NCBI GenBank assembly: GCA_029288895.1 | Contig: JARIGK010000001.1 | Coordinates: 1,446 to 65,445, forward strand | Source: Candidatus Adlerbacteria bacterium | Lineage (GTDB): Bacteria; Patescibacteriota; Minisyncoccia; Phycocordibacterales; SBAW01 | Reading direction: 5' to 3' | DNA length: 64,000 nt | Shown: positions 7,641 to 43,436 of the stretch, in pieces | How positions within the stretch are numbered: the stretch's first letter is position 1 | Layout: every line of letters begins with the position of its first letter | The notes under the pieces: model-generated | Seen by the model: only the letters and a program-made list of their open reading frames with translations | What the model was told of the DNA's origin: nothing | The model's database searches: none | Program-made: the position numbers and the translations under genes

Positions 7641-7723
7641 GGGCATGTGGCGGAATTTGGTATACGCGTACGTCTCAGAAGCGTATCCCGTAAGGGTTGG
7701 GAGTTCGAGTCTCCCCATGCCCA
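7641..7723 (+). tRNA. tRNA-Leu (anticodon CAG), class II with long variable arm; CCA not encoded
   Basis: Acceptor GGGCATG/CATGCCC, D-arm GCGG-AATTTGGTATA-CGC, anticodon stem TACGT/GCGTA with loop CTCAGAA (anticodon CAG), long variable arm TCCCGTAAGGGTT, T-arm GGGAG-TTCGAGT-CTCCC, discriminator A. Confidence 0.88.
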
Positions 7724-28633: not shown

Positions 28634-29753
28634 GTAGTGTATCTAAGAATACCCGATAGTTTTTTGCAAATTCCTCGCGTGTATGGTGCGCACGCGCATA
28701 CTCCCATGTGCGGCGAGCTCTTTCTTTGAGTGTGTCAGTAGGCAGTACCGAAAGGTTTTTTAGTGCACTCTGGAGCGTTTCAACATCTGAGTTAGGAAGT
28801 AGTGTTCCAAAATCCCCAACATCAACAGATGATTCGTAATTAACAAGTGGGATAAGCCCTGCGTGCATGCCTGTGATGACGCTACCGCCTCCGCCTTCCG
28901 AACATGAAAGAGAAACAACACCAACAGACTCGCTACATACCTGTGCAAATTCCTTACTACCTTGATCCACAAAGCCCAGCATCTTGATGTTTGGTGTGTG
29001 ATAAAGCTCTTGTGTAAACGCCTGCGCAAACGGGTCTTCTGGTGCGAGCTTGGCACACACTACTAGTGTGTAGTCTCGCATCCCCACAAAGGCTTCGAGC
29101 ACAAGGTCCAAACCTTTATGGAGTGGTCCTGCGCCGCCGATCCAGACAAATTGTTTTTTTGCAGCGTTGAAATCTTTATGTTCAGGAGAAGGGAAGAGAT
29201 GAGTTGCAGAAATAGGAATGCGGGCTATTGGTTTCTTTGCATAGGCATAGGTGTCGGTAGTAAAACGGTTACCAAGCGCTGTGCCGCACTCGGCCAATTC
29301 AAGCGTCTTAACTTCGGGGATATTTCTATCTGGTGCGAGTGTTATGCCGCGACGATGTTTAAGAGCGTCGGCGCGCATCTGCCCTGCATGATTCTGGAAC
29401 TTCGGTTCTGCGTTCGTAATATGAAATATTTTTTTACATGATGGCGGGAGAAGGGGTGCGAGGCGCTGCATATTACCTGCATTGTCGACAAAGAAATCGT
29501 AGTTCTTGCGTGGAAGAAAACTTTGGTTCGTTGAGTCGATAACATCGACCGCGTATCCGCGCTCAATAAATGCGTCGACCATATTTTTTCCTTCCCAATA
29601 ATTTGTGTGGCTATCCCACGGACCAGGGCGCAACCATGGAAGCGTAACGTACGAAAAAAGAACGGTGCCTTTTGGAGTGCCTTTGGGCGTGAGCGAGATA
29701 ACTCTGCCGTGGAGGCGAAAGAAAATCCGTTTTAAAAATTCACTACTCTGCAT
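28626..29753 (-). CDS. glycosyltransferase (GT-B, group 1-like)
   Basis: C-terminal SCSEGGGGSVITGMHAGLIPLV motif. ORF overlaps with both neighbours. Confidence 0.6.
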   Translation of the reverse strand: MQSSEFLKRIFFRLHGRVISLTPKGTPKGTVLFSYVTLPWLRPGPWDSHTNYWEGKNMVDAFIERGYAVDVIDSTNQSFLPRKNYDFFVDNAGNMQRLAPLLPPSCKKIFHITNAEPKFQNHAGQMRADALKHRRGITLAPDRNIPEVKTLELAECGTALGNRFTTDTYAYAKKPIARIPISATHLFPSPEHKDFNAAKKQFVWIGGAGPLHKGLDLVLEAFVGMRDYTLVVCAKLAPEDPFAQAFTQELYHTPNIKMLGFVDQGSKEFAQVCSESVGVVSLSCSEGGGGSVITGMHAGLIPLVNYESSVDVGDFGTLLPNSDVETLQSALKNLSVLPTDTLKERARRTWEYARAHHTREEFAKNYRVFLDTLHA

Positions 29754-31497
29754 GAGTTTTTAACCACACCTCTAAGCACAATAGCGTCCATAGTTGGTAG
29801 TACGCTTTTGGTTTCTGCCCAGCGAGTGTTTCGCGGACGAATGTCTGTATGCGTTCACGGTCGAGATACTGGTAGACGCGCGCATTCTCAAATGTCTTTT
29901 CGACATAGGCACGCAGTGTAGGCTCGGCGAGCCATTTGCGTATCGGCGCACCGAAGCCTTGTTTTTTACGGTCGACGAATTCGCGTGGCATGATATCGGC
30001 GAGCATATCTTTCAAAATAAGTTTGCCAGTCTTGCCATCGGTTTTGTATTCGATAGGTAGGTTGAATGCAAATTCGGCAAGTTTGTAGTCCAAAAATGGA
30101 CAGCGGATTTCCAAACCATGCATCATGCCCATTTCGTCGACTTTAGTAAGCAACTGGCCTTGCATGTGCGTTGTGATGTCGAACAGGTCCATCTTTTCTA
30201 CTGCGGAGCCAACAAAATTTTTAACCAATGTGTCTATCTGTTCGGTCCAAAGGTTGCCCGAATTTTTTTGGAGATTTTTGCGTAGCGAAAGAGGGAAGAC
30301 AGTGCTCTGCTTTAAGAAATCTTTGTACTGATTTGAGAATAACGCATTGCGCAGGCGGGACAGTTTGTTGGTATGCCAGTACGAGAAATAGCGGCCGTAC
30401 CCCAAGAACATTTCATCACCGCCTTCGCCCGACAGTGCCACTTTGACGTGCTTGGCAGTTTCGCGTGAGAGAAGGTGTTGCGGGAAGTCAGCAGGGTCAC
30501 CGTGTGGTTCGTCGAAGTAGGCAAGCGCGGCTTCTAGCTCGTGGATAAGGTCCGCGGATGCCTGCAGCGTTTGATGTTTGGTGCCAACTTTTTTGGCGAG
30601 CTGTTCTGCAAAGGGAAGTTCGTCTATCAAATCGCCATAACCAAGCGAAAAAGTTTGGAGCGGGCGCGTGAGTTCTTTCTGTGCGTAGGCGACAACAAGC
30701 GACGAGTCGACACCTCCCGAAAGAAATGCACCAACTTCGACATCGGCAGCGATCATGCGCTTTTTGACTGCATCAGCAAAGAGGCGCTTTGCTTCTACTT
30801 TTGCTTCGTCGTAGGAAAGAGTGAGCGGCTTTCGTTCGAGCTTCCAGTATTGGGTGACGTTGAGTGCCCCGTCTTTGTACGTTGCAGCATGGCCGCCCAA
30901 AATGGTGTGGACGTTTTTGTATATCGTGCGCCACGGCGGCACGTACATAAGCGCCAGGTATGCATCTATGCCTTGTGGGTCGATTTCTGGCTTCACCCCC
31001 GCGGCGATAAGCGCTTTGATCTCGGAGCTTACCGCAAGTTTCCCATCAGGTGTGTGTGCATAGAAAAGCGGTTTCTTTCCAAAACGGTCGCGCGCCATAA
31101 AGGCCTGTTTTTTCTCGTCATCCCAAATGACAAACGCGAACATGCCATCGAGATACTTCGGACATTCGGACCCGTACCCTTCGTATGCTTTTAAAATGAC
31201 TTCTGTGTCGGACTGGGTAGAAAATATGTAGCCTTTTTTCTCGAGTTCTGCGCGCAACTCTTTGTAGTTATAGATTTCGCCGTTAAATGTGATAGCAATA
31301 TTTTTTGCATTGTCGCGCATTGGCTGGTGGCCAGAAGGCGAGAGGTCGATGATAGCCAGGCGCGTATGGCCAAGTGCGGCGTCGCCGAACGCCATCGTGC
31401 CGTGGCTATCTGGCCCGCGATGGGCGAGCATGTTGAGCGCCTTATCAAGAGATGTGTTGCCGGCATCTGTGCCGATAATACTGATGATGCCGCACAT
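29743..31497 (-). CDS. asnB: asparagine synthase (glutamine-hydrolysing) family amidotransferase
   Basis: N-terminal MCGIISIIG (Ntn Cys2) and SGGVDSS PP-loop. Confidence 0.9.
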   Translation of the reverse strand: MCGIISIIGTDAGNTSLDKALNMLAHRGPDSHGTMAFGDAALGHTRLAIIDLSPSGHQPMRDNAKNIAITFNGEIYNYKELRAELEKKGYIFSTQSDTEVILKAYEGYGSECPKYLDGMFAFVIWDDEKKQAFMARDRFGKKPLFYAHTPDGKLAVSSEIKALIAAGVKPEIDPQGIDAYLALMYVPPWRTIYKNVHTILGGHAATYKDGALNVTQYWKLERKPLTLSYDEAKVEAKRLFADAVKKRMIAADVEVGAFLSGGVDSSLVVAYAQKELTRPLQTFSLGYGDLIDELPFAEQLAKKVGTKHQTLQASADLIHELEAALAYFDEPHGDPADFPQHLLSRETAKHVKVALSGEGGDEMFLGYGRYFSYWHTNKLSRLRNALFSNQYKDFLKQSTVFPLSLRKNLQKNSGNLWTEQIDTLVKNFVGSAVEKMDLFDITTHMQGQLLTKVDEMGMMHGLEIRCPFLDYKLAEFAFNLPIEYKTDGKTGKLILKDMLADIMPREFVDRKKQGFGAPIRKWLAEPTLRAYVEKTFENARVYQYLDRERIQTFVRETLAGQKPKAYYQLWTLLCLEVWLKTHAE

Positions 31498-31539: not shown

Positions 31540-32145
31540 TTACATTAAGGCTTCGATTTCCCGGGCCACATCCTCTGCAGTAGGGACTGTGCCGTCTGTC
31601 CGACGCGCCAGTAAGTTTCTTACACCCTCCGGCAAATTTTTATTAAGGCCGCCTGGCAGAAAAGGCGGGGCGATTTCGTAAACACGGATGCCTTTCTCGC
31701 TCCATTGCTCGCGCAGCGCGGAGAGTAATTCGCGAAGTTTTTGTTTCGCAGGTATGTATGCACCGATGTTTTTCTCCGGCTCTGCTTTATCGAGTGATGC
31801 AGTTGTAATGCCTAGAAAAAGGGAACCATGCTTCATGTGCGGCAAAAACGTGTTGGCCAAAATTTCTGCAGCCGTGACAGTGACTGCAAACTCGTCAGCA
31901 ACTTCTTTCTCTGTTGTATCTTCGAGCGCCTTGCGTGTAGTCGCCATGCTCGCCATATGGATGACGCAATCAGGCGCGCCACGTTCTTCTAAGATTTTCT
32001 CTGTTATCTGCGTAAGAGCTGTGGCGTCTCGCACGTCGCAGATTTCTCTGCCGATATTGAATACATCAAACCCATGCGTACGGAGCATCTGCGTAACTGC
32101 ACTTCCAACGTAGCCTGAGCCGCCTGTAACTACTGCGGTTTTCAT
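31540..32145 (-). CDS. SDR-family NAD(P)-dependent oxidoreductase (short, atypical)
   Basis: TAVVTGGSGYVGSAV Rossmann motif. YxxxK-like AYIPAKQK. Confidence 0.7.
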   Translation of the reverse strand: MKTAVVTGGSGYVGSAVTQMLRTHGFDVFNIGREICDVRDATALTQITEKILEERGAPDCVIHMASMATTRKALEDTTEKEVADEFAVTVTAAEILANTFLPHMKHGSLFLGITTASLDKAEPEKNIGAYIPAKQKLRELLSALREQWSEKGIRVYEIAPPFLPGGLNKNLPEGVRNLLARRTDGTVPTAEDVAREIEALM

Positions 32146-32561
32146 AGAACTTTTGTGTAGACAGTTCCTTGGACAAGAATATCTGTGTCGCGACGGATTG
32201 TTATGTCGAGCGAAAGTATACGCCCTGCTTCGCTCTTGTGTGCAATGACGCCCTCTACCTGTACGGTGTCACCGGCGAATGCGGGGAGTTTAAATACAAG
32301 CGACTCCTGCATGAGCAGGCATCTCTTGCCTGGAATATGCATACCAACAAGTTGTGATACAAGTGCGCCGAGAAACATCCCATGCACGACGGGTTTATTA
32401 AATTGCGTTGTTGCAGCGTATTCTGCATCAGTGTGCAATGGATTATTGTCACCTGAAAGCTGCGCAAATGTAGAGACGTCGCCCGCGCTAATTGTTCGTG
32501 TTAGTGCGCATGTTTCGCCAACCACGAATGATTCAAATGTTCTGTCGGCGGCTTGGTTCAT
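32142..32561 (-). CDS. MaoC-like (R)-hydratase/dehydratase, hotdog fold
   Basis: GDNNPLHTD...PVVHGMFLGALVSQLVG motif of MaoC/PhaJ dehydratases. Confidence 0.8.
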   Translation of the reverse strand: MNQAADRTFESFVVGETCALTRTISAGDVSTFAQLSGDNNPLHTDAEYAATTQFNKPVVHGMFLGALVSQLVGMHIPGKRCLLMQESLVFKLPAFAGDTVQVEGVIAHKSEAGRILSLDITIRRDTDILVQGTVYTKVL

Positions 32562-32788
32562 ACATTCGCACCCTTTGTTTTCAGGGCTGTACGCACGGCG
32601 CCCAAACTTTCAGCAGAGAGCACTTCGTCCATGGTGAATGTGACGTTATATTCTTTCTCGAGTTCTGCAATAAAAAGCAGATAATTCATGGAGTCCCAAT
32701 CAGGTACGTCCTTGGGTGTGAGGACGTCACTAATATTCTCGCGAGGGATATGCAGCTGTTCGAACACAATATCTTCAAATGATTTCAT
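32558..32788 (-). CDS. acyl/peptidyl carrier protein (DltC/ACP-like)
   Basis: 76 aa with DVPDWDSMNYLLFIAELE, the DSL/DSM phosphopantetheine-attachment motif. Confidence 0.7.
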   Translation of the reverse strand: MKSFEDIVFEQLHIPRENISDVLTPKDVPDWDSMNYLLFIAELEKEYNVTFTMDEVLSAESLGAVRTALKTKGANV

Positions 32789-32794
32789 ACGGTG

Positions 32795-33838
32795 TTATGT
32801 AATAGTAATCCATTCTGGCTTGTGCACATCATGCGCATCCAACATGCCATTGTTGAAGCGTGTCTCGGCAAATGTGCGAGCAGGTTCATTTTTCTCACTT
32901 GGTACGACAGGCAAGGCAAGCATGTGTGCACCTTCTGCCTGTGCAGCTTGTGCAATAGCGTACAGTAAGGCGTCCTCGATGCCTCGTTCAAATACGCGGC
33001 AGCTCATAAGCATAGTTTCAATGACCCAGGTAGTCTCTTCTTTTGTAACTATCGCGAGCGCCACAATACCGTGGTCGCCGAAGCGGTCGAGTGCGTGCGC
33101 ATGGAAGACTTCGTGTAAGCCATCCTGCATAAAGCTGTGCAGTGTATCTTCCGAGTGAGGGATTTTATTGGTATTGAATTGATTTGTTTTTTCAGTCATC
33201 TGCGCAAGGCGTGCGAGGGCGCTTTCGTCGTTGCGCCCGATGCGAACTTCTAACGACAAACTTTTCAAAAATTCATTCTTATTCTCGAACTTCTTTTCTG
33301 CCTCGCGGCGCAGGCGTTCAGTAACATACATATTGCCGCGCATCTTGTCCTCGTCCGTTACGGCGTTTGATGCAAAGTAGGGGAGCGAATGCAACATGCG
33401 CGTGTACTCGCGTGGGTCCGCCGGGAGGTCAGGCACGGCAACGTCCGGAAGTGCTGTACGCACGAGCTCGCGCTCAACAGGGTTGTCGTCGAGGAACACC
33501 ATCGAGTCAAGCCCGATGTTTAGCTCTTGTGCGAGTTCTTTGATATTTTCTGCCTTTTCTTTCCAGTTAATGCGATGTGCTGCAAAATGCGGCTCTTTCA
33601 AAATCATGTTCGGATGCGTGCGGATGGCGTCGAGCGCATCTGCTTCGTTATTTTTACTGCTGATTGCAAGCAAGATGCCACGGTCGTACAGATCACGCAG
33701 CGCCTGCTGAAACGATACAAATGATGCGCCGGGTTCTTCAAGCGAGAGCGCTATACCGTTTATGCCGTCTTCGCCAACGACGCCGCCCCAGAGCGTATTA
33801 TCCAAATCAAGCACAATGCATTTCTTTTGCTCAGCCAT
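32795..33838 (-). CDS. FkbH-like domain protein (HAD-superfamily IIIC phosphatase plus C-terminal GNAT-like transferase domain)
   Basis: N-terminal KCIVLDLDNTLWGGVVGEDG HAD motif I, SSKN motif II, VFLDDNPVERE motif III, and a C-terminal domain of roughly 150 aa. Confidence 0.75.
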   Translation of the reverse strand: MAEQKKCIVLDLDNTLWGGVVGEDGINGIALSLEEPGASFVSFQQALRDLYDRGILLAISSKNNEADALDAIRTHPNMILKEPHFAAHRINWKEKAENIKELAQELNIGLDSMVFLDDNPVERELVRTALPDVAVPDLPADPREYTRMLHSLPYFASNAVTDEDKMRGNMYVTERLRREAEKKFENKNEFLKSLSLEVRIGRNDESALARLAQMTEKTNQFNTNKIPHSEDTLHSFMQDGLHEVFHAHALDRFGDHGIVALAIVTKEETTWVIETMLMSCRVFERGIEDALLYAIAQAAQAEGAHMLALPVVPSEKNEPARTFAETRFNNGMLDAHDVHKPEWITIT

Positions 33839-33841
33839 ATT

Positions 33842-34171
33842 TTAGTGTGCTACTGCAACTGCTGTGGCGAGTGTGTCAGTGTGAGAAATCGAAATAGAGA
33901 CCAGGTCACTCTTTGTGCCGCCAAACCACACTTCTGGTTTACCACTTTCGTTGCGACGTATCTCGATATCTTTAAATAACGAAAAATCTCCCGTTGCTTT
34001 GCGAACGGCTTCTTTTGCTGCAAACGTACCTGCAAAATGCACTGCTTTGTTTGTGTAGGAATTACAGTACTCCTGTTCGAGTTTTGAAAATGTATTGTCC
34101 ATAAATTGCTGCTGGCCCAAGGCCTGTTCCATGCGTGCAACTTCCACCAAGTCTATACCGACGCCTGCCAT
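33842..34171 (-). CDS. acpS: holo-[acyl-carrier-protein] synthase (4'-phosphopantetheinyl transferase)
   Basis: MAGVGIDLVEVARM...FAAKEAVRKA...ISISHT: classic AcpS motifs in 109 aa. Confidence 0.85.
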   Translation of the reverse strand: MAGVGIDLVEVARMEQALGQQQFMDNTFSKLEQEYCNSYTNKAVHFAGTFAAKEAVRKATGDFSLFKDIEIRRNESGKPEVWFGGTKSDLVSISISHTDTLATAVAVAH

Positions 34172-34189
34172 AGCTGTGCCGCTATGATA

Positions 34190-35182
34190 CTAGTTCGAGG
34201 AGACTTTTAAAAGTTTAGGAAGGAGTGGTGTAATGATGCGTATCATCTCTTGTGTCCGAGCCTCTTTCCCGGCCTCATTTGGATGTTCCGCATCGAGGTA
34301 CATCGAATACGGAAAGGCAAAATCATCCTCTGTCCCAAGTACTGTGCTTGTGCCAATTGCATTTTGTATTTGTTCTATCTGGGCAGCAATAAGTGCGGTG
34401 TTTGCCGCGACGATCTCTTCTGGGGCGCTCGGCGGCATATAGAACACATGAATACCACGTGCCTGTGATTGTTGAACAAATGACTTCATGTCCGCCAACA
34501 CGCCTGAATCTACAGGACTGATAAAACCTGCAGCATCTGCATATGCGGCTTCACGTGTCATATGCTTCTCTCCTGCAAGCTCGGTATTAACATCGCCATA
34601 GTTATTAAATGCCTCGAGCGTGTTCATTCTGTCGGCCGCAGTAAGGGTGCGATGAGGGAAGAAGAGTGCCAGATAAAATTTATATGCTTGTGCCTGCAAC
34701 CATGATGGTGAGTGCCGTAGCATCACAACAATGGTATGAAGCGACAGCACAGCGCGCGCCTGTTCAGGATTTGAATGCAGCATTTCAAGTAGATAAAACC
34801 CATCACCATAGTCTGGCTGCTGCAATACGACGTGTTCGGGGCTAAGTACGACGATATCGCCCGGTCGGAGATTGTCCGTAAGTTCGTGCAGCATAAACTT
34901 CAATCCCAATGCACCATATATACCCATGTTGATGGGATGGAGGCCCGTTTCTTTTTCTATAAGAGGTGAGTCTATACCAAGTGCAACACCCGAGCCTCCA
35001 ACAAAAATAATTCGCGGGCTTTCTGTTGTATCGAGTAAGGCAATTTTTTCTTTAAGACTCGACGCGTAATCGTGTGAGTTGTAACTCACAGCCCACACTC
35101 CTGCACAAAATAAGAGTATAAGTAAAAAACATCCTACAGCTTCTCCTGCGTACACAAGAAATTGTGAGAATTCGCTCCGCAT
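34190..35182 (-). CDS. DltD/AlgJ-like SGNH-fold protein, membrane-anchored, paralogue 1
   Basis: N-terminal TM helix followed by a periplasmic/extracellular domain of about 300 aa with the DltD-like IIFVGGSG block. Confidence 0.5.
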   Translation of the reverse strand: MRSEFSQFLVYAGEAVGCFLLILLFCAGVWAVSYNSHDYASSLKEKIALLDTTESPRIIFVGGSGVALGIDSPLIEKETGLHPINMGIYGALGLKFMLHELTDNLRPGDIVVLSPEHVVLQQPDYGDGFYLLEMLHSNPEQARAVLSLHTIVVMLRHSPSWLQAQAYKFYLALFFPHRTLTAADRMNTLEAFNNYGDVNTELAGEKHMTREAAYADAAGFISPVDSGVLADMKSFVQQSQARGIHVFYMPPSAPEEIVAANTALIAAQIEQIQNAIGTSTVLGTEDDFAFPYSMYLDAEHPNEAGKEARTQEMIRIITPLLPKLLKVSSN

Positions 35183-35187
35183 AGCAA

Positions 35188-36180
35188 CTATTGCTTTTTC
35201 AAGCGTGACATAAGAAGCGGTAGAAGTTTTGCAGTGTATTCTTTTCTACCCTGATCGGTTAAGTGAGAAGATGTATCTAAAAATTCCGTGTCCGGCATTA
35301 CAAATGTGCTTATGGTGCCTACGAGAATGCTTGTGCCGAGCTCATTCTCGACCTGCGTCTCGCGTGCTGCAGCGCGCGTAGGGTTGGCGTCATAGACAGA
35401 CTGTGCGAGGGGAGGCCATACAACAAGAACATGCACGCCACGCGTTTGTAGGTTCTGTATTGTGTGGGCAAGATAGGAGAGTGTTTGTGGATCCGCGCCG
35501 CGGTCGCCTATTTGTCCCGCATCGTTTGTAAGAACCTCTGCCGTTGTTAGATGTGCGTCGCCAGCGACGGTTGATATGGTGTCGCCATAGATATTAAAGT
35601 TATGCTTGCTGTATAACAAAACACTTAGCGGTTTTGGTTGTGCGCAGAACGGTAGCCCAGATCTCAAACAAAGTGCGTTTGCTTTTTCCTGCATCCAATT
35701 GGGAAGGTGTCGCACCATAACAACAATGCCGTGCGGTGTTGCTCCTGTTGGGATGTATTGCGGGTTTGCTTGCAGCGTGTCGAGCAATGCTGCGCCATCG
35801 CCGTAATAGGGTTGCTGGATTACCTGCTCCTCCATTAGATATAGGATAGTGTCGCCAGCATGTAATCTGCTATCTATCGACGCAAACATAAATCGCAATC
35901 CGAGCCCGGCCGAAGAGCCCATGTTGACGGGGTTGTAGTGCGTTTTGTCGTAGATCATTTGAGAGTCGATATCCATTGCGCCGCTTGAACCCGCAACAAC
36001 AATAATGCGTGGATCAGGTGCCGTGGCCATGCGCGTATCTTTTGGGGAAAGATTGTAATACGAATCGTGGTTATAGCTTATGACAGCAAGAAAGAGTACG
36101 AACGAGCATACCAGCATGGCGCATCCGACCATAGAGAATACGAAGCGTGCAAACTGCTTCCGCTCATCTGAGAACATCAT
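35188..36180 (-). CDS. DltD/AlgJ-like SGNH-fold protein, membrane-anchored, paralogue 2
   Basis: Same architecture and recognisable similarity to 34190..35182 (IIVVAGSSGAMDID vs IIFVGGSGVALGID; VHVLVVWPPLAQSVYDANP vs IHVFYMPPSAPEEIVAANT). The start was set at an internal ATG to avoid overlap with the MBOAT gene. Confidence 0.5.
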   Translation of the reverse strand: MMFSDERKQFARFVFSMVGCAMLVCSFVLFLAVISYNHDSYYNLSPKDTRMATAPDPRIIVVAGSSGAMDIDSQMIYDKTHYNPVNMGSSAGLGLRFMFASIDSRLHAGDTILYLMEEQVIQQPYYGDGAALLDTLQANPQYIPTGATPHGIVVMVRHLPNWMQEKANALCLRSGLPFCAQPKPLSVLLYSKHNFNIYGDTISTVAGDAHLTTAEVLTNDAGQIGDRGADPQTLSYLAHTIQNLQTRGVHVLVVWPPLAQSVYDANPTRAAARETQVENELGTSILVGTISTFVMPDTEFLDTSSHLTDQGRKEYTAKLLPLLMSRLKKQ

Positions 36181-36185
36181 GAGAT

Positions 36186-37643
36186 TTAGAATTGGAAGTA
36201 AATAAACTGTACGCCCGAGCTGAATGAGCCCAAAAGTAAAATGGCACAAATAGCCCCTGCGTAGAGAGTCATGCGTGCAAATTCAGGAGTGCGTATGAGA
36301 CGCGGTATAAGTACGCCACGCGCGTGCAATGCTTCGACTAGCTCAAGTGCGACAATGCCCGCTAGGCCAACGATGGTTGGCCATATAGCGCTGTCCATAA
36401 ACACAACGTGGGAGAGTCCTGCGACTGACGTAAGGCTTGCAAAAAACGATGGGATGCCACGGCCAAGGCCTGCAAGTATAGAAAGTGCAATGTTGATTGT
36501 GGGCGAGCGGAAAAATACATAGGTGGTACAGACAAGAGCGAATACGGTGAGTTGTTTTAAGAATCGTGGTGTGTGGATATACGTCGAGCGCCATCTGCCG
36601 GTGAGGCCGCCGACGACGAGATACATACCATGGAGTGCGCCAAATACGACATACGTCCAATTTGCGCCATGCCAAAGGCCGATGAGTGTAAGCGTTACAA
36701 AGAGACTTGTGTAAATCCGGGTTGGTGTGATGCGTTTGCTGCTAAATACCAGTGGTTGGTAGAGATATTCGCGTAACCAACTTGTGAGCGAGATATGCCA
36801 ACGATTCCAAAAATCTGTCATTGATATTGCATGGAATGGGCGATTGAAGTTGATCATCAACTCATAGCCAAAGAATCGTGCAGCGCCCCGCGCAATGTCG
36901 GTGTAGCCAGAAAAGTCGCAATAGATCTGATAGGCAAATAGTGCTGTTGCAAGTACGAGGCTGGGCCCGGGGTACAGAGACGAGTGTGCGTACACGGCGC
37001 TCACCGCCGTGGCTATATTGTCGGCGATGACCAATTTTTTAAAGAAGCCCCAAAGCATGAGACGCGTGCCGCTTTGTGCCATCTCAAGGGAGAATTGGCG
37101 ACCTTCGACAATTTGTTTGAGCAACCCCTGCGGGCGTTCAATGGGGCCTGCAGCCAGCTGCGGGAAGAAGCTCACATATAGCGCGAACTTTCCAAAATGT
37201 TTTACAGGAGTGAATTTGCGACGGTACACCTCTATGGTGTAGCTCATGCTTTGGAATATATGGAAGGAGATGCCAATCGGCAGAATTATATTCAAAAGCG
37301 GGAAATGTGTTGCGATGCCAGCAGCGCCCAGCACTTCGTGGAGCGATGTAAAAAAGAAGTTGAAGTATTTAAAGTAGAACAAAATACCCAGGTTGGCACA
37401 TATACTTGCTGCCAAGTAGAGGCGGCGGCGGTGTTCATTCTGGTCGGCGCCCATAGCGAGGCCGGCGACATAATCTATGCAGGTAATGGCAAACAAAAGC
37501 AATCCGTAGGATGCTTTAAATGCCATATAGAAGATATAGCTTGCGATGAGCAGCGGTACCCAGCGAAAACGCTTGGGAGTAAGCATCCATAACACAAGAA
37601 CAGTTGGGAAGAAGAAGACGAAGCGTACGTCGACAAAGCTCAT
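36186..37643 (-). CDS. MBOAT-family membrane-bound O-acyltransferase (DltB/AlgI-like)
   Basis: Multi-pass membrane protein with MBOAT hallmarks: the WHISLTSWLREYLYQPL region containing the conserved His, and FRSP-type segments. Confidence 0.85.
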   Translation of the reverse strand: MSFVDVRFVFFFPTVLVLWMLTPKRFRWVPLLIASYIFYMAFKASYGLLLFAITCIDYVAGLAMGADQNEHRRRLYLAASICANLGILFYFKYFNFFFTSLHEVLGAAGIATHFPLLNIILPIGISFHIFQSMSYTIEVYRRKFTPVKHFGKFALYVSFFPQLAAGPIERPQGLLKQIVEGRQFSLEMAQSGTRLMLWGFFKKLVIADNIATAVSAVYAHSSLYPGPSLVLATALFAYQIYCDFSGYTDIARGAARFFGYELMINFNRPFHAISMTDFWNRWHISLTSWLREYLYQPLVFSSKRITPTRIYTSLFVTLTLIGLWHGANWTYVVFGALHGMYLVVGGLTGRWRSTYIHTPRFLKQLTVFALVCTTYVFFRSPTINIALSILAGLGRGIPSFFASLTSVAGLSHVVFMDSAIWPTIVGLAGIVALELVEALHARGVLIPRLIRTPEFARMTLYAGAICAILLLGSFSSGVQFIYFQF

Positions 37644-37650
37644 AAGTAGA

Positions 37651-38523
37651 TTACAGAGATAATACTATCCAGTGGGAGGGGAGTAAATCGACGCTATCGA
37701 GTTTTGCGTTCCAATGCTTGGGCGCAATGGTGATGCCGGTTCTGTAATGGTCAGAAAGCCATGAGCCCCACCACCCAAAGGTGCTGTTTGCGAGAATGTG
37801 GTGGTGGCATAGGCGCATGAGTTCAAGATCCTCATAATTTTTCTCCGCGCCTTGCCCTACGAATTCAGTCGGGAATCCAGTCTTAATATGTTCTTGCGCC
37901 CAGGGTAGGTCGTCCGAAAAGACAAAAAATATTGGGTCTTCGACCCGTTCTCGTATTATGGCTATCGCCGCTTCGTAATATTCCATAGACGCTGTACCAA
38001 GTATTTTGTTAAAGCGGGGGACAGAGACGAAGTCGCCGCGGCGTACATGCAACATGACTGGTGCACGTGCAGACCGTATCTTGTGAGCCATATCCTCTGC
38101 GTAAGGGCCAAGTGGTTCTCGCAATGTAAACTCTGTACGCAAAAGAGGTTCTATCTCAAGAAAATATTTTTCTGTCTGCCAATAGCCATCCACCTCGCAC
38201 GGAGCTTCAAGGTCCATCATTTCCGGAGAAAATGTAAATTTCGGCTCAACGACATACTTGGTAGTATCAGCGAAAAAGCGATTTAAGCGCCGCCCTATGC
38301 GCCCGCTGCGTGGTTTGTATCGTACAAACTTCGCTAAATCTTCTTTAGTGGCGATGTGCTCGTCTATATTAAGGTGTCCGAGGCTGTATGAGTGATACTC
38401 ATAATTATCAAATAGCGATATATCGAGTTTTAGCTCGGTATTATTTCGGAGTGCGAGCATGCGCCCAAACGCATATTGGAACATTGTGTTGCCAAGGCCG
38501 CCTTGTAATTTCGTTATAATCAT
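37651..38523 (-). CDS. alpha-1,2-fucosyltransferase (glycosyltransferase family 11)
   Basis: N-terminal IITKLQGGLGNTMFQYAFG is the GT11 hallmark. C-terminal HVRRGDF motif. Confidence 0.85.
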   Translation of the reverse strand: MIITKLQGGLGNTMFQYAFGRMLALRNNTELKLDISLFDNYEYHSYSLGHLNIDEHIATKEDLAKFVRYKPRSGRIGRRLNRFFADTTKYVVEPKFTFSPEMMDLEAPCEVDGYWQTEKYFLEIEPLLRTEFTLREPLGPYAEDMAHKIRSARAPVMLHVRRGDFVSVPRFNKILGTASMEYYEAAIAIIRERVEDPIFFVFSDDLPWAQEHIKTGFPTEFVGQGAEKNYEDLELMRLCHHHILANSTFGWWGSWLSDHYRTGITIAPKHWNAKLDSVDLLPSHWIVLSL

Positions 38524-38598
38524 GGACGTCGTACAGTAATTGTCGCACAGTAGGAATTTTAAATCTATGTGCTATGCTTTCCTCATACTTTAGAAAAT

Positions 38599-39621
38599 AT
38601 GGCTGCAGCAAAGAAAAAAACGGCTCCCAAAAAGCCTGCTCGTACTACTCAGAAAGGCAAGACCGCTATTATTACAGGTGTTACAGGTCAGGATGGTTCG
38701 TATCTCGCGGAACTTTTGCTCGGAAAAGGATACCAAGTGTATGGTGTTATGCGCCGCGTGTCGTCGTTTGGTTCAACAGGGAGAATTGATCATCTCCTAG
38801 ATAACCCTAATTTCCATAAAGTCTACGCAGATCTTGATGATGGCCCTTCTATAGATGCGCTTGTTGCAAAAGTTAAGCCGGACGAATTTTATAACTTGGG
38901 CGCTATGTCGCATGTTCGAGTCTCATTTGAAGTGCCGCGCTATACGATAGCGACGAATACACTTGGCGTACTCACTGCCCTTGAAGCAATCCGTCAGCAT
39001 TCTCCACACACCAAGTTCTACCAGGCCTCAAGTTCAGAAATGTTCGGCGACCCAGGTGTGCCGGTGCCATTTAATGAAAAGACGCCGATGATACCTCAGA
39101 GCCCTTATGGCGTATCAAAACTCGCGTCATATCACCTTGTGCAGCAATATAAAAACGGCTACGGACTATTTGCCACCACGGGCATTCTCTTCAATCACGA
39201 AAGTCCGCGCCGTGGAGAAAACTTTGTTACTAAAAAAATTAGCTTAGCTGTCGCACGCATCAAAAAAGGCCTGCAAGACAAACTTGAACTTGGTAACTTG
39301 GATGCGAAACGTGATTGGGGATGGTCGCCAGAATTCGTCGAGGCGATTTACCAGATTATGCAGCACGACAAACCAGATACTTTCGTCGTTGCAACGGGCG
39401 AGACGCATACGATTCGTGAGTTCGTTGAAGAAGCGTTCAAACATGTAGGACTTAACTGGAAAGACTACGTTACATTCCATGAGAAACTGTTGCGCCCAAA
39501 TGAAGTGCCTAAGCTTTTGGGTGACGCTACAAAAATCCGTAAAACACTCGGGTGGAAACCTGCAAAGAAGTTCAAAGACATAGTCCGGGAAATGGTCGAC
39601 CACGATCTTCAAAATCTATGA
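38599..39621 (+). CDS. gmd: GDP-mannose 4,6-dehydratase with a Lys-rich N-terminal extension
   Basis: KTAIITGVTGQDGSYLAELLLGKGYQVYGVMRRVSSF..., SSSEMFG, YGVSKL catalytic motifs. The start is at 38599 (MAAAKKKTAPKKPARTTQKGK...). Confidence 0.92.
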   Translation: MAAAKKKTAPKKPARTTQKGKTAIITGVTGQDGSYLAELLLGKGYQVYGVMRRVSSFGSTGRIDHLLDNPNFHKVYADLDDGPSIDALVAKVKPDEFYNLGAMSHVRVSFEVPRYTIATNTLGVLTALEAIRQHSPHTKFYQASSSEMFGDPGVPVPFNEKTPMIPQSPYGVSKLASYHLVQQYKNGYGLFATTGILFNHESPRRGENFVTKKISLAVARIKKGLQDKLELGNLDAKRDWGWSPEFVEAIYQIMQHDKPDTFVVATGETHTIREFVEEAFKHVGLNWKDYVTFHEKLLRPNEVPKLLGDATKIRKTLGWKPAKKFKDIVREMVDHDLQNL

Positions 39622-40007
39622 TCCGCGAGTTGGTCGCTGGTGGGCAGGTTGTTGCTAAAGTCTTTGATGGGACACCCACGCAACTGGGTGTCGAAGCTGC
39701 TTCTGATGCGGCAGCGCCTTTGCAGGTATTGCGCATGCAACGCGAGAAAGGATATGTCGTTGCAAAACATGGGCATGCGCAGATGGTTCGAACAACGAAT
39801 GCACGGCAGAAAGCCCTTGTGGTGATTTCGGGTTCGATTGATGTGGTCGTGTGCGATACCAAAGGAGTCGATGGCGATGCGCATACGCTAACACCCGGCC
39901 AATGCCTGTACCTTATGGACGGCGGCTATTCGCTGACGTGCGCCGAAGATACAGTGTTTTATGAATTTAAAAACGGTCCTCATGCCGATGATAAAATAAC
40001 GCTATGA
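39618..40007 (+). CDS. cupin-domain protein (probable nucleotide-sugar epimerase/isomerase)
   Basis: ATGA overlap with the gmd stop. About 129 aa of beta-rich cupin-like sequence (KHGHAQ...GSIDVVVCD...). Confidence 0.5.
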   Translation: MIRELVAGGQVVAKVFDGTPTQLGVEAASDAAAPLQVLRMQREKGYVVAKHGHAQMVRTTNARQKALVVISGSIDVVVCDTKGVDGDAHTLTPGQCLYLMDGGYSLTCAEDTVFYEFKNGPHADDKITL

Positions 40008-41209
40008 ATGTAACTGCATGCCATCTGTGTGGATCGTCTAATTTAGTTAAGACTATTGATCTTGGCTTCCATCCGCTCGCCGATTTCTTTGTGAAAGAAC
40101 ATCAACTTAATGAGATGGAACGTCGCTACCCGCTATCGGTACTTCTGTGTCGAGAGTGCGGGCATTCGATGAACAGTTACGTTGTCCCGGCAGAAGTACG
40201 CTACCAGGAAAATGACTATAGCTACGATTCAAGTAATTCAAAAATAGCCATTCAGCATTTTACTGATATGGCTCGTGAGGTGAGTGAGCGGGCCGGGTCT
40301 GCGCCTGGCGATTTGGTTGTTGATATTGGAAGCAACGTGGGAACGCTTCTTGCCGGGTTTAAAGCGCTTGGGATGAGAGTGCAAGGCGTGGACCCGTCAC
40401 ACAATATTGCCGCCCTTGCAGTCGAGAACGGCATTCCAACCATTAATGATTTTTGGAGCGAGGCGGCGTCAGGAGAAATTCAAAAGCTTGGGAAAGCAAA
40501 AGTTATTACTATGACGAATGCGTTTAACCACGTGAGCGATCTCCATGCGTTTATGAAAGCGCTTGTGCCGGCGCTGCGCGATGACGGGGTGTTTGTTATC
40601 GAACTCCCGTATTACCTCACGCTACTGCTTAAATATCACTTCGATACGATTTATCTCGAGCATGTCTCGTACGTGTCTGTAAAACCTCTTATGGCATTCT
40701 TTGAGAGATTCGGTCTTACTGTCCTCCACGCAGAGGAGAATGACTATATGAGCGGTTCTGTCCGTATCTTTGTAGGCAAAGGGCAGAGCGATGCCACTGT
40801 CGCTGAACTCATAGAAAAAGAAAAAGCCGCAGGTCTCTTTGAAGAACAGACGTATATTGAATTTTGTAAAAAACTCGAAGCGCTTAAAGTGCACCTGCTC
40901 GGGGAGCTTGTTGCTGCACGGAAGGCGGGTGGCAAAATTGTAGCGATTGGTGCCGCTGCAAAAGGGAATACGCTTCTCAATTATTGCGGCATTGATCGGA
41001 CGCTTATCGATTTTGCAACGGATGCATCGCCGCTTAAAGTCGGCAAATATACTCCTGGTTCGCATTTGCCAATAAAGAGCGATGACGCGATAGACGACAC
41101 AGTGACGCACGCGCTTATTTTGGCGTGGAATATCGCTGATTTCTTGATAGGGAAGATTGGCCCAAAGCATCCTCACCTAGACTTCATTACCCCGCATGTT
41201 ATAAAGTGA
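40004..41209 (+). CDS. nucleotide-sugar C-methyltransferase family protein (TylCIII/NovU-like; N-terminal Zn-ribbon plus SAM-MTase)
   Basis: N-terminal CHLCGSS...CRECGH zinc-binding motif, VVDIGSNVGTLL SAM motif, and a C-terminal C-methyltransferase-type domain. Confidence 0.65.
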   Translation: MNVTACHLCGSSNLVKTIDLGFHPLADFFVKEHQLNEMERRYPLSVLLCRECGHSMNSYVVPAEVRYQENDYSYDSSNSKIAIQHFTDMAREVSERAGSAPGDLVVDIGSNVGTLLAGFKALGMRVQGVDPSHNIAALAVENGIPTINDFWSEAASGEIQKLGKAKVITMTNAFNHVSDLHAFMKALVPALRDDGVFVIELPYYLTLLLKYHFDTIYLEHVSYVSVKPLMAFFERFGLTVLHAEENDYMSGSVRIFVGKGQSDATVAELIEKEKAAGLFEEQTYIEFCKKLEALKVHLLGELVAARKAGGKIVAIGAAAKGNTLLNYCGIDRTLIDFATDASPLKVGKYTPGSHLPIKSDDAIDDTVTHALILAWNIADFLIGKIGPKHPHLDFITPHVIK

Positions 41210-41213
41210 CATT

Positions 41214-41681
41214 ATGAAGATAGAAAAGAGAAAGATTAATTTTGAAGATGCTCGTGGCACCATTTCTGATATTTTTGAAAGCCAGCCCAAAGAGCACTGC
41301 ACAATCATTCATTCCAATAAAAATTCTGTCCGTGGCAACCATTACCATAAGCAGACAGTTCAGTGGGACTACATGGTGCAAGGTCGCATGCTCGCCATTC
41401 ATGAGAAGCTTGGCAGCGGTGTAGTTGAAGAACACATCTTGGAACCAGGAGACTTCGTTGAGTGGCCTGCGAACGAAGTGCATGAGTTTATCGCCCTTGA
41501 TGATGTTATTTTCATCACGTTCCACAATGGCCCGCGCGGCGGCGACAATTACGAAAACGATACATTCCGCGTTGATGTCCCGCTCCACGAACGCTTGGGT
41601 AAGAAAATCGAAAACGGTATCTTTGTAGACCCGACTTTGTACGCACGCATCGCCGCACAGCGCGCAGCAGAAGGTAAGTAA
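41214..41681 (+). CDS. cupin-fold sugar 3,4-ketoisomerase-like protein (FdtA/WxcM C-terminal domain family)
   Basis: FEDARGTISDIFE...HYH...H pattern typical of FdtA/QdtA-type ketoisomerases. Confidence 0.55.
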   Translation: MKIEKRKINFEDARGTISDIFESQPKEHCTIIHSNKNSVRGNHYHKQTVQWDYMVQGRMLAIHEKLGSGVVEEHILEPGDFVEWPANEVHEFIALDDVIFITFHNGPRGGDNYENDTFRVDVPLHERLGKKIENGIFVDPTLYARIAAQRAAEGK

Positions 41682-43436
41682 TTATCGCTTTGTAGCGAGG
41701 TAGTCGCCAATAGCGAGCACATCTATCATCCCGCTGGTGAGGGATTTAAGCGCGTCATCTGGCGTGCATACGATCGGTTCTTCATGGACGTTGAAACTTG
41801 TATTGATAACGAGCGGTAAACCCGTGAGTTTTTTATATTCTGTAAGTAGGGCATGGAAACGCGGGTTCGTATCCTGGCGAACAAGCTGCGGGCGGGCGGT
41901 ACCGTCTACGTGTGCAACGGCAGACGCTTTTTCTACCCACTCCTTTTTCATATCAAATGTTATGGTCATAAATTCGGCAGGACGTTTCATTGATGATTTT
42001 TCCATATGAAAAAGTTCTTCCGAAGCTTCATATAAGCAGCTTGGGGCAAAGGGCATAAATTCAGTGCGCTTCATGCGATCGTTGAGCCACTTGTTTATTG
42101 ATGCGTCGGTTGGGTGTGCGAGTACGCTTCTGTTGCCAAGTGCGCGAGGCCCATATTCCATACGGCCTTGGAACCAGCCAACAATCTTTTTTTCTGCAAT
42201 CAGCGCAGCAGTTTCTTGTTCTATAGTGTCTGTTTTTCTATAGACGATTAACGATTCTGCGGAAAGCGCGCGCTCTATTGCTGCATCATCAAATTGGGGC
42301 CCAAGGTACGCATCTTTCATTCGCCGTTCTTGCGGCGTGTATGGATGCGTCCTGTGGTAGGCAAGCATTGCTGCTCCATAGGCATTGCCGCCATCGCCCA
42401 TGTCGGGGAAGACAAACAAACTCTGCACTGACGGCATTTCAGAAATACGCTGGTTGAGTTTGACGTTGGCAAAGATGCCGCCTGCAAGCACAAGGTTCTG
42501 TTTCCCAGTTTTTTGTACCCAATAGGAAATGAATTCGCACGCTCGCTGCTCAAGCGCATACTGGACCGCTGCGGCCATATCTTTTTGCGGGAGATGCGAG
42601 ATGCTGTCGATAATAATACGCCACGGGTTTGAGCTGTAAGGAATTAGTTTCAATTTCATCCGAACGCGATTATAAAATTTCCACAGCGGCGTAGAGTGCG
42701 GATATATAATCGCTCCATCTTCTACAAGGATTTGTTTCTTGAGAATCTCCCATCCTTGTTCTGGGTTTCCCAATGCTGCAAGGCCAGTAATTTTTCCTTC
42801 ATGCCGCGAAACTTTAAATCCGCAAAAACGAGTCATCTCTGAATAGAGCCAGCCCAGCGATGCAGAAGAGGGTACTGTTGTAAGTGTCTCCATCTGGCCC
42901 TTTGAGCAGACCCGCACAGAGCCGGAGCACAAGTCTCCCTCTCCATCGAGCGTTATTGCAAGTACGTCATCCTCGCCGCTTGCATAGTATGCGCTTGCTG
43001 CGTGGCACGCGTGATGGTCGAAAAATGCTATCTCAGCAGAAATGCCTACTGCCAAAAGGAGTGTGCGGATTTTTTTCTCGACATACGCTTTACACTCTTC
43101 GTCGCTTTGCACAGCCTTCCATTCTTTGTCATTAAGATAAAAATCAGGCCCAGGTTTTTCGTTTTGCAAATCGTAATACTGTTTATCTTCCGTAAGCAAA
43201 AATGCCATAGTGCGCGCCCATTCTTTTTTAAATGTACCCATCGAGACGGCAACAACATCAACTTCTTTCGGGTCGACTATCTTTTCTTTGATGATGTAGC
43301 GCAAACTTTCAAACGGAAAGCCAGTGTATGCCTTTATGCGGTTAAGGCGCTCTTCTGCAATAGAAAAAATATGCGAACCGTCGCGGATGACGGTCAGTGT
43401 ACCGTCGTGGGAAGGTGAAATGCCAAGTATGGTCAT
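41682..43436 (-). CDS. carbamoyltransferase (NodU/CmcH/NovN family)
   Basis: N-terminal ILGISPSHDGTLTVIRDGSHIFSIAEERLNRIK and the C-terminal domain typical of O-carbamoyltransferases. Confidence 0.85.
   Translation of the reverse strand: MTILGISPSHDGTLTVIRDGSHIFSIAEERLNRIKAYTGFPFESLRYIIKEKIVDPKEVDVVAVSMGTFKKEWARTMAFLLTEDKQYYDLQNEKPGPDFYLNDKEWKAVQSDEECKAYVEKKIRTLLLAVGISAEIAFFDHHACHAASAYYASGEDDVLAITLDGEGDLCSGSVRVCSKGQMETLTTVPSSASLGWLYSEMTRFCGFKVSRHEGKITGLAALGNPEQGWEILKKQILVEDGAIIYPHSTPLWKFYNRVRMKLKLIPYSSNPWRIIIDSISHLPQKDMAAAVQYALEQRACEFISYWVQKTGKQNLVLAGGIFANVKLNQRISEMPSVQSLFVFPDMGDGGNAYGAAMLAYHRTHPYTPQERRMKDAYLGPQFDDAAIERALSAESLIVYRKTDTIEQETAALIAEKKIVGWFQGRMEYGPRALGNRSVLAHPTDASINKWLNDRMKRTEFMPFAPSCLYEASEELFHMEKSSMKRPAEFMTITFDMKKEWVEKASAVAHVDGTARPQLVRQDTNPRFHALLTEYKKLTGLPLVINTSFNVHEEPIVCTPDDALKSLTSGMIDVLAIGDYLATKR

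Follow-up and report, generated by a model that had tools for sequence, protein, structure and literature searches.

The present study deals with a block of eight genes in a 64,000-nucleotide stretch of a Candidatus Adlerbacteria contig (JARIGK010000001.1, positions 1,446 to 65,445; the whole stretch is called the window, and positions given without a locus label count from its first letter). In this block an O-acyltransferase of the membrane-bound type (MBOAT) and two SGNH proteins with a DltD fold are encoded directly beside a set of proteins that would load and edit an acyl group on a small carrier protein, a combination that we read as a candidate system for carrier-dependent acylation of the cell envelope. 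According to the list of open reading frames (ORFs), the coordinates of which were checked, the eight genes are co-directional and lie at 31540-37643 on the minus strand:

31540-32145, minus strand: compact reductase of the short-chain dehydrogenase/reductase (SDR) type, 201 aa (PF00106, PF13561)
32142-32561, minus strand: MaoC hotdog dehydratase, 139 aa (PF01575)
32558-32788, minus strand: carrier protein, 76 aa (PF00550)
32795-33838, minus strand: FkbH-family loader, 347 aa (TIGR01686)
33842-34171, minus strand: dedicated AcpS-type phosphopantetheinyl transferase, 109 aa (PF01648, TIGR00556)
34190-35182, minus strand: X1, DltD-fold SGNH protein with N-terminal transmembrane (TM) helix, 330 aa (assigned by fold and motifs)
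35188-36180, minus strand: X2, DltD-fold SGNH protein with N-terminal TM anchor, 330 aa, paralog of X1
36186-37643, minus strand: MBOAT, 485 aa (PF03062 and TIGR04091, partial matches)

Below, the five genes from AcpS to SDR are called the cassette (AcpS-FkbH-ACP-MaoC-SDR, where ACP is the acyl carrier protein), and an MBOAT gene followed by an X-type SGNH gene the MBOAT-X pair. An earlier note on this DNA had described nine co-directional, tightly packed minus-strand genes. Strand and packing are borne out by the ORF coordinates and gap lengths, but eight genes were found, and a ninth is reached only if the flanking AsnB-like gene (29743-31497) or the GT11 gene (37651-38523) is included. From the AsnB-like gene to GT11 the intergenic distances are 42, -4, -4, 6, 3, 18, 5, 5 and 7 nt, which leaves a spacing of -4 to 18 nt within the block; the MaoC and SDR genes are translationally coupled to the carrier gene via the 4-nt overlaps, and the distance from MBOAT to FkbH is about 2.3 kb. 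A promoter and terminator scan found fewer promoter-like sites than in shuffled sequences and, within the block, no convincing minus-strand terminator.

The families to which the proteins had been assigned in the earlier note (AcpS, FkbH, carrier, MaoC, SDR, MBOAT and SGNH) were all confirmed by profile, motif or predicted fold. The FkbH protein matches TIGR01686 with 318.1 bits (cutoff 146.65), its residues 5-325 lying on positions 3-315 of the 323 in the model, and it features an N-terminal HAD domain of the HAD-IIIC type (D11-L-D-N-T15, 33794-33808) and a C-terminal GNAT-fold domain with the motif S-C280-R (32996-33004). This full-length match includes the FkbH-specific C-terminal part and identifies the protein as FkbH rather than a generic HAD phosphatase. 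The closest FkbH homologs carry the names Candidatus Paceibacterota or Adlerbacteria. Homologs from outside the candidate phyla radiation (CPR) are mostly about 576-650 aa long and possess an additional N-terminal stretch of about 230 aa without counterpart in the 347-aa protein of the window (L020-L086, e.g. L048:9359-11089; loci used for comparison are labelled L).

The carrier protein matches PF00550 with 22.2 bits (cutoff 20.8) and aligns with solved ACPs at the DS motif. The phosphopantetheine-attachment serine is present as Ser33 (W-D-S-M, 32690-32692) and conserved on alignment of 65 homologs, with W-D-S kept in at least 95% of them; the sequence match points to a generic ACP fold and not to the DltC family specifically. 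AcpS scores 73.6 bits on TIGR00556 (cutoff 45.35) and 51.9 on PF01648 (cutoff 25), and with 53.6 lies slightly under the cutoff (59.8) of the equivalog model TIGR00516. The dehydratase (PF01575, 67.9 bits) contains the hydratase motif S-G-D-N-N-P-L-H (32433-32456), and its Asp/His motif (G-D-x-N-P-x-H) and H-G pair are conserved in 30 homologs. The reductase (PF00106, 64.9 bits), unusually short at 201 aa, features the nucleotide motif T-G-G-S-G-Y-V-G and a triad of Ser115, Tyr130 and Lys134 (Y-I-P-A-K, 31744-31758) that is conserved in 17 homologs. As the earlier note had stated, the DltA ligase is missing: there is no AMP-binding or DltA-like ORF among the larger ORFs of the window.

The MBOAT (PF03062, 71.3 bits) has DltB as its nearest solved structure (6bug/8jem, E 1e-28), and both of its histidine motifs, with the catalytic His283 (WNRWH) and His325 (GLWHG), align with those of DltB; on the DltB model TIGR04091 it scores 155 bits, below the cutoff of 375. 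Its C-terminus, F480-I-Y482-F-Q-F485 (36189-36206), is an FxYxxF motif. This motif has been described as an "acyl shuttle", which resides on the microprotein DltX in Dlt systems and is fused to the MBOAT in PatA, AlgI and other systems, and the MBOATs with a fused tail have been assigned to the users of acyl-CoA, which "lack a similar carrier protein" (PMC12148441). A DltX-like microprotein ORF bearing the motif was found nowhere at 25-45 kb of the window, and databases label the close homologs of the MBOAT "AlgI". The earlier description of the protein as DltB/AlgI-like therefore stands as far as the nearest solved structure is concerned, whereas the architecture is of the PatA/AlgI type (fused FIYFQF, no DltX) and not of the DltB type. 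The window thus pairs an MBOAT architecture of the acetyl-CoA class with a cassette for carrier-protein loading, and in this lies the interest of the window and likewise the uncertainty of the coupling.

X1 and X2 share 34% identity (E 4e-58) and the conserved motifs of their family, which in X1 are G-G-Ser64 (34991-34993), Asn85, Gly108-Asp109 and Asp297..His300 (34283-34294). The start of X2 is the ATG at 36180, 5 nt past the MBOAT stop, and not the upstream TTG that overlaps the MBOAT gene. No sequence-family match for X1 or X2 was found in Pfam or NCBIfam, and a sequence search of the PDB with X1 gave no match; the likeness came from the fold, as the ten top Foldseek hits of the predicted X structure are all DltD (E 6e-6 to 9e-5), and the model shows the TM helix and the GGS and D..H motifs. 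Two paralogous DltD/AlgJ-like SGNH proteins had been proposed here, and fold, TM anchor and catalytic motifs agree with this, but a match to the DltD family at the sequence level does not exist. The DltD-fold family of X1 and X2 comprises more than 7,000 representative clusters without a Pfam model and merits a family definition of its own.

A neighbourhood survey started from FkbH covered 86 loci, and all related loci compared number about 100. Among CPR loci with an FkbH of at least 54% identity the set AcpS-FkbH-ACP-MaoC-SDR is near-invariant, and in essentially every CPR locus the cassette comes with MaoC and SDR. Several of the loci that bear the cassette are labelled Saccharibacteria. 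Nine distinct loci, besides the window, have an MBOAT of about 485 aa with the ending FIYF[QK]F as the immediate upstream neighbour of AcpS or the immediate downstream neighbour of the SDR gene. In total, four MBOAT lineages that appear independent have a member directly next to the cassette: the window type (MBOAT-X-cassette); a type in which the MBOAT gene comes after that of the SDR; a short type of DltB size without the motif, found in L048 (Magasanikbacteria) and L072 (Micrarchaeota) in the order MBOAT-AcpS-FkbH-ACP-MaoC-SDR; and L105, with the order ACP-MaoC-SDR-MBOAT-(307 aa)-NeuB. A single clade of all cassette-linked MBOATs was seen in the first neighbour-joining (NJ) tree and split into separate lineages once sequences were added, so that our argument is one from independent juxtapositions and not from monophyly. 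A further locus, L030, is labelled as an uncultured gammaproteobacterial metagenome-assembled genome; its gene coordinates are those of the Magasanikbacteria contig L048 and its proteins near-identical. It is probably a mis-binned CPR contig, and L030 and L048 were counted as one lineage.

Two ATG-initiated membrane microproteins of L048 abut neighbouring genes and end in FIYTLF and FIYNNF, a motif of the DltX type; by sequence, only the one with FIYNNF is a clean DltX-like candidate. Membrane microproteins of the family DUF5989 (PF19451) end in P-F-I-Y-T-[LI]-F and so fit FxYxxF (L048:11094-11255; L011:5330-5521, minus strand; L086:61-234). Their gene stands directly beside a NodU-like carbamoyltransferase in L011 and between FkbH and the carrier gene in L048, and DUF5989 may be a free-standing shuttle family. 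In the loci with the MBOAT after the SDR gene (L005:14861-15973; L014, L017, L018, L019), the product of the next ORF is a different TM-anchored protein, about 370 aa long, which has a conserved L-G-T-S-R motif and no Pfam match and is presumably another family of extracytoplasmic partners.

The MBOAT is not the only partner of the cassette. Among all loci compared, at least 13 distinct ones have an MBOAT as the partner and eight an AAC(3)-like N-acyltransferase (PF02522), and both occur together in none. The N-acyltransferase stands beside the cassette in L003, L008, L010 and five more loci, all without MBOAT, and often together with NeuB and PseB-like genes for nonulosonic acid:

L003, 7535-8323: AAC(3)-like N-acyltransferase flanking the cassette (PF02522)
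L008, 12407-13195: AAC(3)-like N-acyltransferase flanking the cassette (PF02522)
L010, 1185-1958: AAC(3)-like N-acyltransferase flanking the cassette (PF02522)

The gene content of these three loci suggests that a nonulosonic acid is N-acylated there with the same group, and because the two transferases are mutually exclusive, the cassette behaves as a portable module for acyl donation, which can be joined to either of them. The earlier note had proposed a search for the whole gene set in related genomes; the five cassette genes recur in CPR, and elsewhere the cassette pairs with a cytoplasmic N-acyltransferase instead. FkbH-ACP pairs are widespread among Acidobacteriota, Thaumarchaeota and Asgard archaea; at these more distant loci, and at those of other groups, MBOATs are missing. 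AcpS is found with the cassette in CPR and in archaea, but neither in FkbH-ACP loci of the Acidobacteriota type nor in bacteria that possess fatty-acid synthesis. The cassettes of L005 and L012 contain inserted methyltransferase genes, as would fit an acyl group with a hydroxyl left free.

The presence of the cassette is reflected in the MBOAT itself. We compared cassette-linked and cassette-less MBOATs at two positions counted back from the catalytic His325, His-12 and His-4, which in the window are Ser313 (36705-36707) and Ile321 (36681-36683) of the helix S313-L-F-V-T-L-T-L-I321-G-L-W-H325-G:

Generic MBOATs, n = 78: Asn at His-12 in 73; Ser at His-4 in 73
Context-checked cassette-less CPR relatives, n = 5: Asn at His-12 in 5; Ser in 4 and Cys in 1 at His-4
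Long cassette-linked MBOATs, n = 14 (two lineages): Ser in 12 and Ala in 2 at His-12; Ile at His-4 in 14
Short type, L030 and L048 (near-identical): not Asn at His-12; Ile at His-4
DltB: Ala at His-12; Met at His-4

Asn at His-12 is absent from every cassette-linked MBOAT. Of the MBOATs that share their locus with FkbH, 15 of 16 have Ile or Met at His-4, as compared with 0 of 27 of the others (adequate flanks only; Fisher 1e-10, a value that ignores shared ancestry), and the 120 closest database homologs fall into discrete His-12/His-4 states, with S/I in 26 and A/I in one as opposed to N/S in 76, N/C in 10 and N/M in five. In DltB the cytoplasmic tunnel for the phosphopantetheine arm is gated by Trp285, Met332 and Ser293 (PMC11035591). 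Met332 corresponds to the His-4 position, so that the changes in cassette-linked MBOATs are on the donor side and toward the state of DltB, the one proven carrier-dependent MBOAT. Another MBOAT in L017 (2718-5158, minus strand), with Thr/Met at His-12/His-4, has its own X-like SGNH gene and an AsnB-like gene and is located about 5.8 kb from the cassette of that locus; the contig of P0289 and P0301 may likewise have two MBOATs and one cassette. Two MBOATs per cassette would fit a single donor module that serves two transferases.

Among close relatives of the MBOAT-X pair, the cassette follows in L167 (57% MBOAT identity), L171 (55%) and L172 (53%), and the residue switch tracks its presence, with L167, L171 and L172 on one side and the cassette-less L168, L169, L173 and L174 on the other. 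In the CPR contig L174 (8493-11226), the three genes after MBOAT-X encode ATP-grasp_2/Citrate_bind, CoA_binding/Succ_CoA_lig/Ligase_CoA and Citrate_synt domains and look like a split ATP-citrate-lyase-like enzyme and thus a dedicated acetyl-CoA supply. As this putative supply occupies the place of the cassette, the slot 3' of MBOAT-X seems to hold donor-supply genes, and such gene content suggests that donor provision is encoded there.

From the gene families, catalytic motifs, predicted folds and comparative-genomic coupling observed here we infer every chemical step of the following model, and with it the identity of the acyl group, the donor of the MBOAT and the acceptor. AcpS would convert the 76-aa carrier to its holo form, a dedicated enzyme presumably being needed because CPR bacteria lack fatty-acid synthesis. 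FkbH would take the glycolytic C3 acyl phosphate 1,3-bisphosphoglycerate, dephosphorylate it with its HAD domain and load glycerate on the carrier via the conserved Cys of the GNAT-fold domain; FkbH and OzmB load a glyceryl unit from 1,3-bisphosphoglycerate onto an ACP. MaoC would remove water across C2-C3, giving an enol-pyruvoyl group that tautomerises to pyruvoyl-S-carrier, and the SDR would reduce the 2-keto group to lactyl-S-carrier. The MBOAT would take the acyl group off the phosphopantetheine arm via its cytoplasmic tunnel onto Tyr482 of its own FIYFQF tail, and the acylated tail would pass it to the Ser nucleophile of the membrane-anchored X1 and X2, which would esterify hydroxyls of the glycan that the surrounding cluster makes, flips (Wzx) and polymerises (Wzy-like). 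We regard this full model, from glycerate loading by FkbH through MaoC and SDR to lactyl esters set on a surface glycan by MBOAT and SGNH proteins, as reasonably likely.

The donor part of the model, glyceryl to pyruvoyl to lactyl, had been put forward in the earlier note and matches a route from polyketide synthesis, in which a dehydratase and a ketoreductase take glyceryl-ACP to pyruvoyl- or lactoyl-ACP as starter units (PMC6162330, citing He et al. 2014). Discrete MaoC and SDR genes coupled to the carrier gene fit that route and point to lactyl-S-carrier as donor; by this analogy, the transferred acyl group is probably lactyl. Alternatively, the architecture could be as proposed but the group another one, such as pyruvoyl, a different C3 derivative or glyceroyl; in the last case MaoC and SDR would have an editing role or act elsewhere. 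Different end products within the family are indicated by the many FkbH-ACP loci that lack both MaoC and SDR and by the thaumarchaeal loci, which have MaoC and no detected SDR. Moreover, Campylobacter jejuni strains with an FkbH-domain gene make sugars modified with dimethylglyceric acid, a derivative of glycerate and not of lactate. Nevertheless, in the window both enzymes have intact catalytic residues and are tied to the carrier gene by the 4-nt overlaps, the pair accompanies the cassette in essentially all CPR loci, and the same pair makes lactoyl-ACP from glyceryl-ACP in polyketide loading modules (PMC6162330). A group other than lactyl is hence rather improbable.

The transfer part of the model, the hand-off of the acyl group to the MBOAT, had also been proposed in the earlier note. 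It is now favoured by several independent comparative lines, namely the juxtaposition in four lineages, the exclusivity of partners, the lack of any other acyltransferase in the cluster and the signature on the His helix; the coupling as such is one that we infer, because the MBOAT-SGNH pair exists without the cassette in close relatives. This and several further observations speak against the hand-off and for a rival explanation, according to which two unrelated systems lie side by side: MBOAT and X1/X2 would carry out O-acetylation from acetyl-CoA in the manner of PatA/PatB or AlgI/AlgJ, and the cassette would feed another acyltransferase, unrecognised or encoded elsewhere. The fused tail of the MBOAT is typical of users of acetyl-CoA and common to all of the 120 closest database homologs. 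MBOAT-X occurs without the cassette in L168 (53% MBOAT identity), L169 (50%), L170 (48%), L173 (54%) and L174 (52%), and no cassette lies within 6-7 kb in L168, L169, L173 and L174. Its absence is a clean one between X and AsnB in L173 (MBOAT-X-AsnB) and in L168, which is syntenic with the window (SecA-MurB-Wzy-Wzx-...-MBOAT-X), MBOAT-X being kept in both. Among 80 metagenomic relatives of the MBOAT (38-48% identity), nearly all of which end in FIYFQF and 17 of which have an X-like neighbour, FkbH was found in none and an ACP match in three; this reciprocal neighbourhood test ruled out that the MBOAT family as a whole is carrier-linked. On such sequence comparisons MBOAT-X is a generic, widespread unit that would be autonomous in principle.

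Other points against the hand-off concern the cassette and the signature. In other genomes the cassette clearly serves the cytoplasmic AAC(3)-like N-acyltransferase, and the carrier does not co-vary with the transferase beside it, its recognition helix (helix II) being identical in MBOAT-linked and N-acyltransferase-linked loci. The His-4 rule has exceptions in L072 (S/S) and L105 (G/S), the long cassette-linked MBOATs are all from CPR, so that ancestry and function are partly confounded, and the MBOAT trees are NJ trees without support values. The FIYTLF microprotein of L048 is a DUF5989 member, a family also found beside carbamoyltransferases, and may not serve the MBOAT. We know of no biochemical data on any FkbH homolog in a glycan context.

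On the other hand, no other acyltransferase (N-acyltransferase, GNAT, LbH) or aminotransferase gene is present in the 31-kb glycan cluster of the window, which leaves the MBOAT and the SGNH proteins as the only candidate consumers there. The mutual exclusivity of MBOAT and N-acyltransferase beside the cassette, the rise of direct juxtaposition in about four MBOAT lineages and the change from Asn/Ser to Ser/Ile on the donor-tunnel helix, which coincides with the cassette and leads toward the DltB state, are likewise at odds with a mere side-by-side arrangement. We consider two unrelated systems unlikely, although this alternative deserves more weight than a different acyl group.

The cassette might also belong, as a fragment, to a pathway of secondary metabolism of the polyketide or tetronate type, in which it would provide a glycerate-derived unit without any role in the envelope. 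The literature found on FkbH and glyceryl-ACP indeed deals with polyketides, tetronates and NRPS (non-ribosomal peptide synthetase) products, except for one paper on flagellin glycosylation in C. jejuni. Yet the window contains no ketosynthase, FabH-like, NRPS or thioesterase gene, the neighbours of the block are glycosyltransferases, sugar-nucleotide enzymes, Wzx and Wzy, and the homologous loci are all glycan clusters; an origin of this kind is thus extremely improbable.

Under the favoured model, the system of the window resembles Dlt D-alanylation in its small carrier with a phosphopantetheine Ser, in an MBOAT nearest to DltB with a non-Asn residue at His-12 and a hydrophobic one at His-4, in anchored SGNH proteins with DltD as best structural match and, as proposed here, in a thioester-activated acyl group that is moved across the membrane via the Tyr of FxYxxF. 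It differs from Dlt in that DltA is lacking and an FkbH HAD/GNAT loader would draw on a glycolytic intermediate, followed by editing through dehydratase and reductase; in a shuttle motif that forms a fused part of the MBOAT and is not carried by a DltX microprotein; and in its two DltD-fold paralogs, neither of which belongs to the DltD sequence family. Further differences are the proposed acyl group, a hydroxy acid in place of D-alanine, the host, which is a CPR bacterium, and the acceptor, probably a glycan of the Wzx/Wzy type rather than teichoic acid. With PatA/PatB and AlgI/AlgJ/AlgX the window shares an MBOAT of about 485 aa with a fused FxYxxF tail, an extracytoplasmic SGNH partner and the location in a polysaccharide cluster. 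In those systems acetyl-CoA is the donor and a carrier protein is lacking (PMC12148441), whereas the MBOAT of the window abuts a full carrier-loading cassette, and the near-invariant Asn (His-12) and Ser (His-4) of the PatA/AlgI family are replaced by Ser and Ile.

The logic of FkbH, hotdog dehydratase and SDR is that of the FkbH-DH-KR loading modules of trans-AT polyketide synthases with their lactoyl or pyruvoyl starters (He et al. 2014, as cited in PMC6162330). Unlike in those modules, the activities in the window are discrete small proteins, no ketosynthase comes next, and the product is proposed for a glycan and not for polyketide priming. The only precedent for FkbH in a glycan context that we found in the literature searched is cj1302, an FkbH-domain gene in the flagellin-glycosylation locus of C. 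jejuni, in strains that make pseudaminic acid modified with dimethylglyceric acid (PMC7099621). Its locus resembles the variant with cassette, N-acyltransferase and NeuB of L003, L008 and L010. In contrast to the window, that paper reports no MBOAT/SGNH partner, the modification is on a cytoplasmically made nonulosonic acid, and the role of cj1302 is putative (PMC7099621). The earlier note had called the combination an undescribed system; in the literature searched, with most subscription journals outside its coverage, we found no prior description of it.

More generally, the loci compared might represent an unrecognised class of carrier-dependent MBOAT/SGNH systems for envelope acylation among CPR, with relatives on a DPANN (Micrarchaeota) contig, that form glycolysis-derived hydroxy-acyl (lactyl-type) esters and have FkbH where Dlt has DltA and a fused tail where Dlt has DltX; the two residues at His-12/His-4 (Asn/Ser versus Ser or Ala/Ile or Met) would then tell for any bacterial MBOAT whether its donor is acyl-CoA or a carrier protein. 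We offer this generalisation tentatively, as its chances fall a little short of even. If true, it would break the two-way division drawn in recent mechanistic work between Dlt, with a carrier donor and a separate DltX, and all other systems, with an acyl-CoA donor and a fused shuttle, and donor type and shuttle architecture would evolve independently. FkbH chemistry, known only from secondary metabolism, would extend to the decoration of the cell envelope, microbial surfaces would be found to carry a new kind of ester, formed with lactyl or some related C3 hydroxy acid, and organisms without fatty-acid synthesis and with possibly limited acetyl-CoA would obtain an activated acyl donor straight from glycolysis. 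In the signature one would then have a cheap and testable means to predict which type of donor is used by thousands of unannotated MBOATs.

The block sits inside a glycan cluster of about 31 kb (about 16.5-47.7 kb), in which GT1, GT2 and GT4 enzymes, several methyltransferases, a GDP-mannose 4,6-dehydratase, a C-methyltransferase, cupins, a NodU-like carbamoyltransferase, a Wzx flippase and a Wzy_C/TPR protein are encoded. On the same strand, the AsnB-like gene and then more glycosyltransferase genes follow downstream. Three members of the cluster adjoin or resemble the block:

29743-31497, minus strand: AsnB-like glutamine amidotransferase, 584 aa (TIGR01536, 481 bits)
37651-38523, same strand as the block: GT11 glycosyltransferase, upstream neighbour
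24084-25109, minus strand: third TM-anchored SGNH protein, GDSL type, 341 aa (PF13472)

The AsnB-like gene is located 3' of the cassette in L001, L007, L011, L048, L167 and L171. A part in the acyl chemistry was considered for it and ruled out, as it directly follows MBOAT-X in the cassette-less L173; it is probably a piece of the ancestral glycan cluster. Orthologs of the third SGNH protein adjoin the MBOAT or the cassette in L011, L030/L048 and L172 and lie elsewhere in the cluster in L001 and L007, and the protein is a possible additional extracytoplasmic partner. The carbamoyltransferase of the window (NodU/CmcH type, 41682-43436, minus strand) recurs in or near the clusters of L003, L005, L009, L011, L013, L048, L172 and L174, where it often adjoins the cassette or the MBOAT.

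Just upstream of the glycan cluster the window encodes a homolog of TrwB/TraG-like coupling ATPases (13274-15076, plus strand) and, next to it, a surface protein with lamin-tail and PKD domains (15051-16469, plus strand). In L005 (6412-9593) this pair is found again, there immediately upstream of AcpS, which indicates conserved synteny. The only Rfam matches in the window are two tRNA genes (312-384 and 7641-7723, plus strand), far from the locus. Beside the GT11 gene, which belongs to a fucosyltransferase family, the plus strand at 38569-41681 carries genes for the GDP-mannose 4,6-dehydratase, a small cupin-like ORF without Pfam match, the sugar C-methyltransferase (PF08484/PF08421) and a second cupin, which suggests a GDP-linked, C-methyl-branched 6-deoxy sugar.

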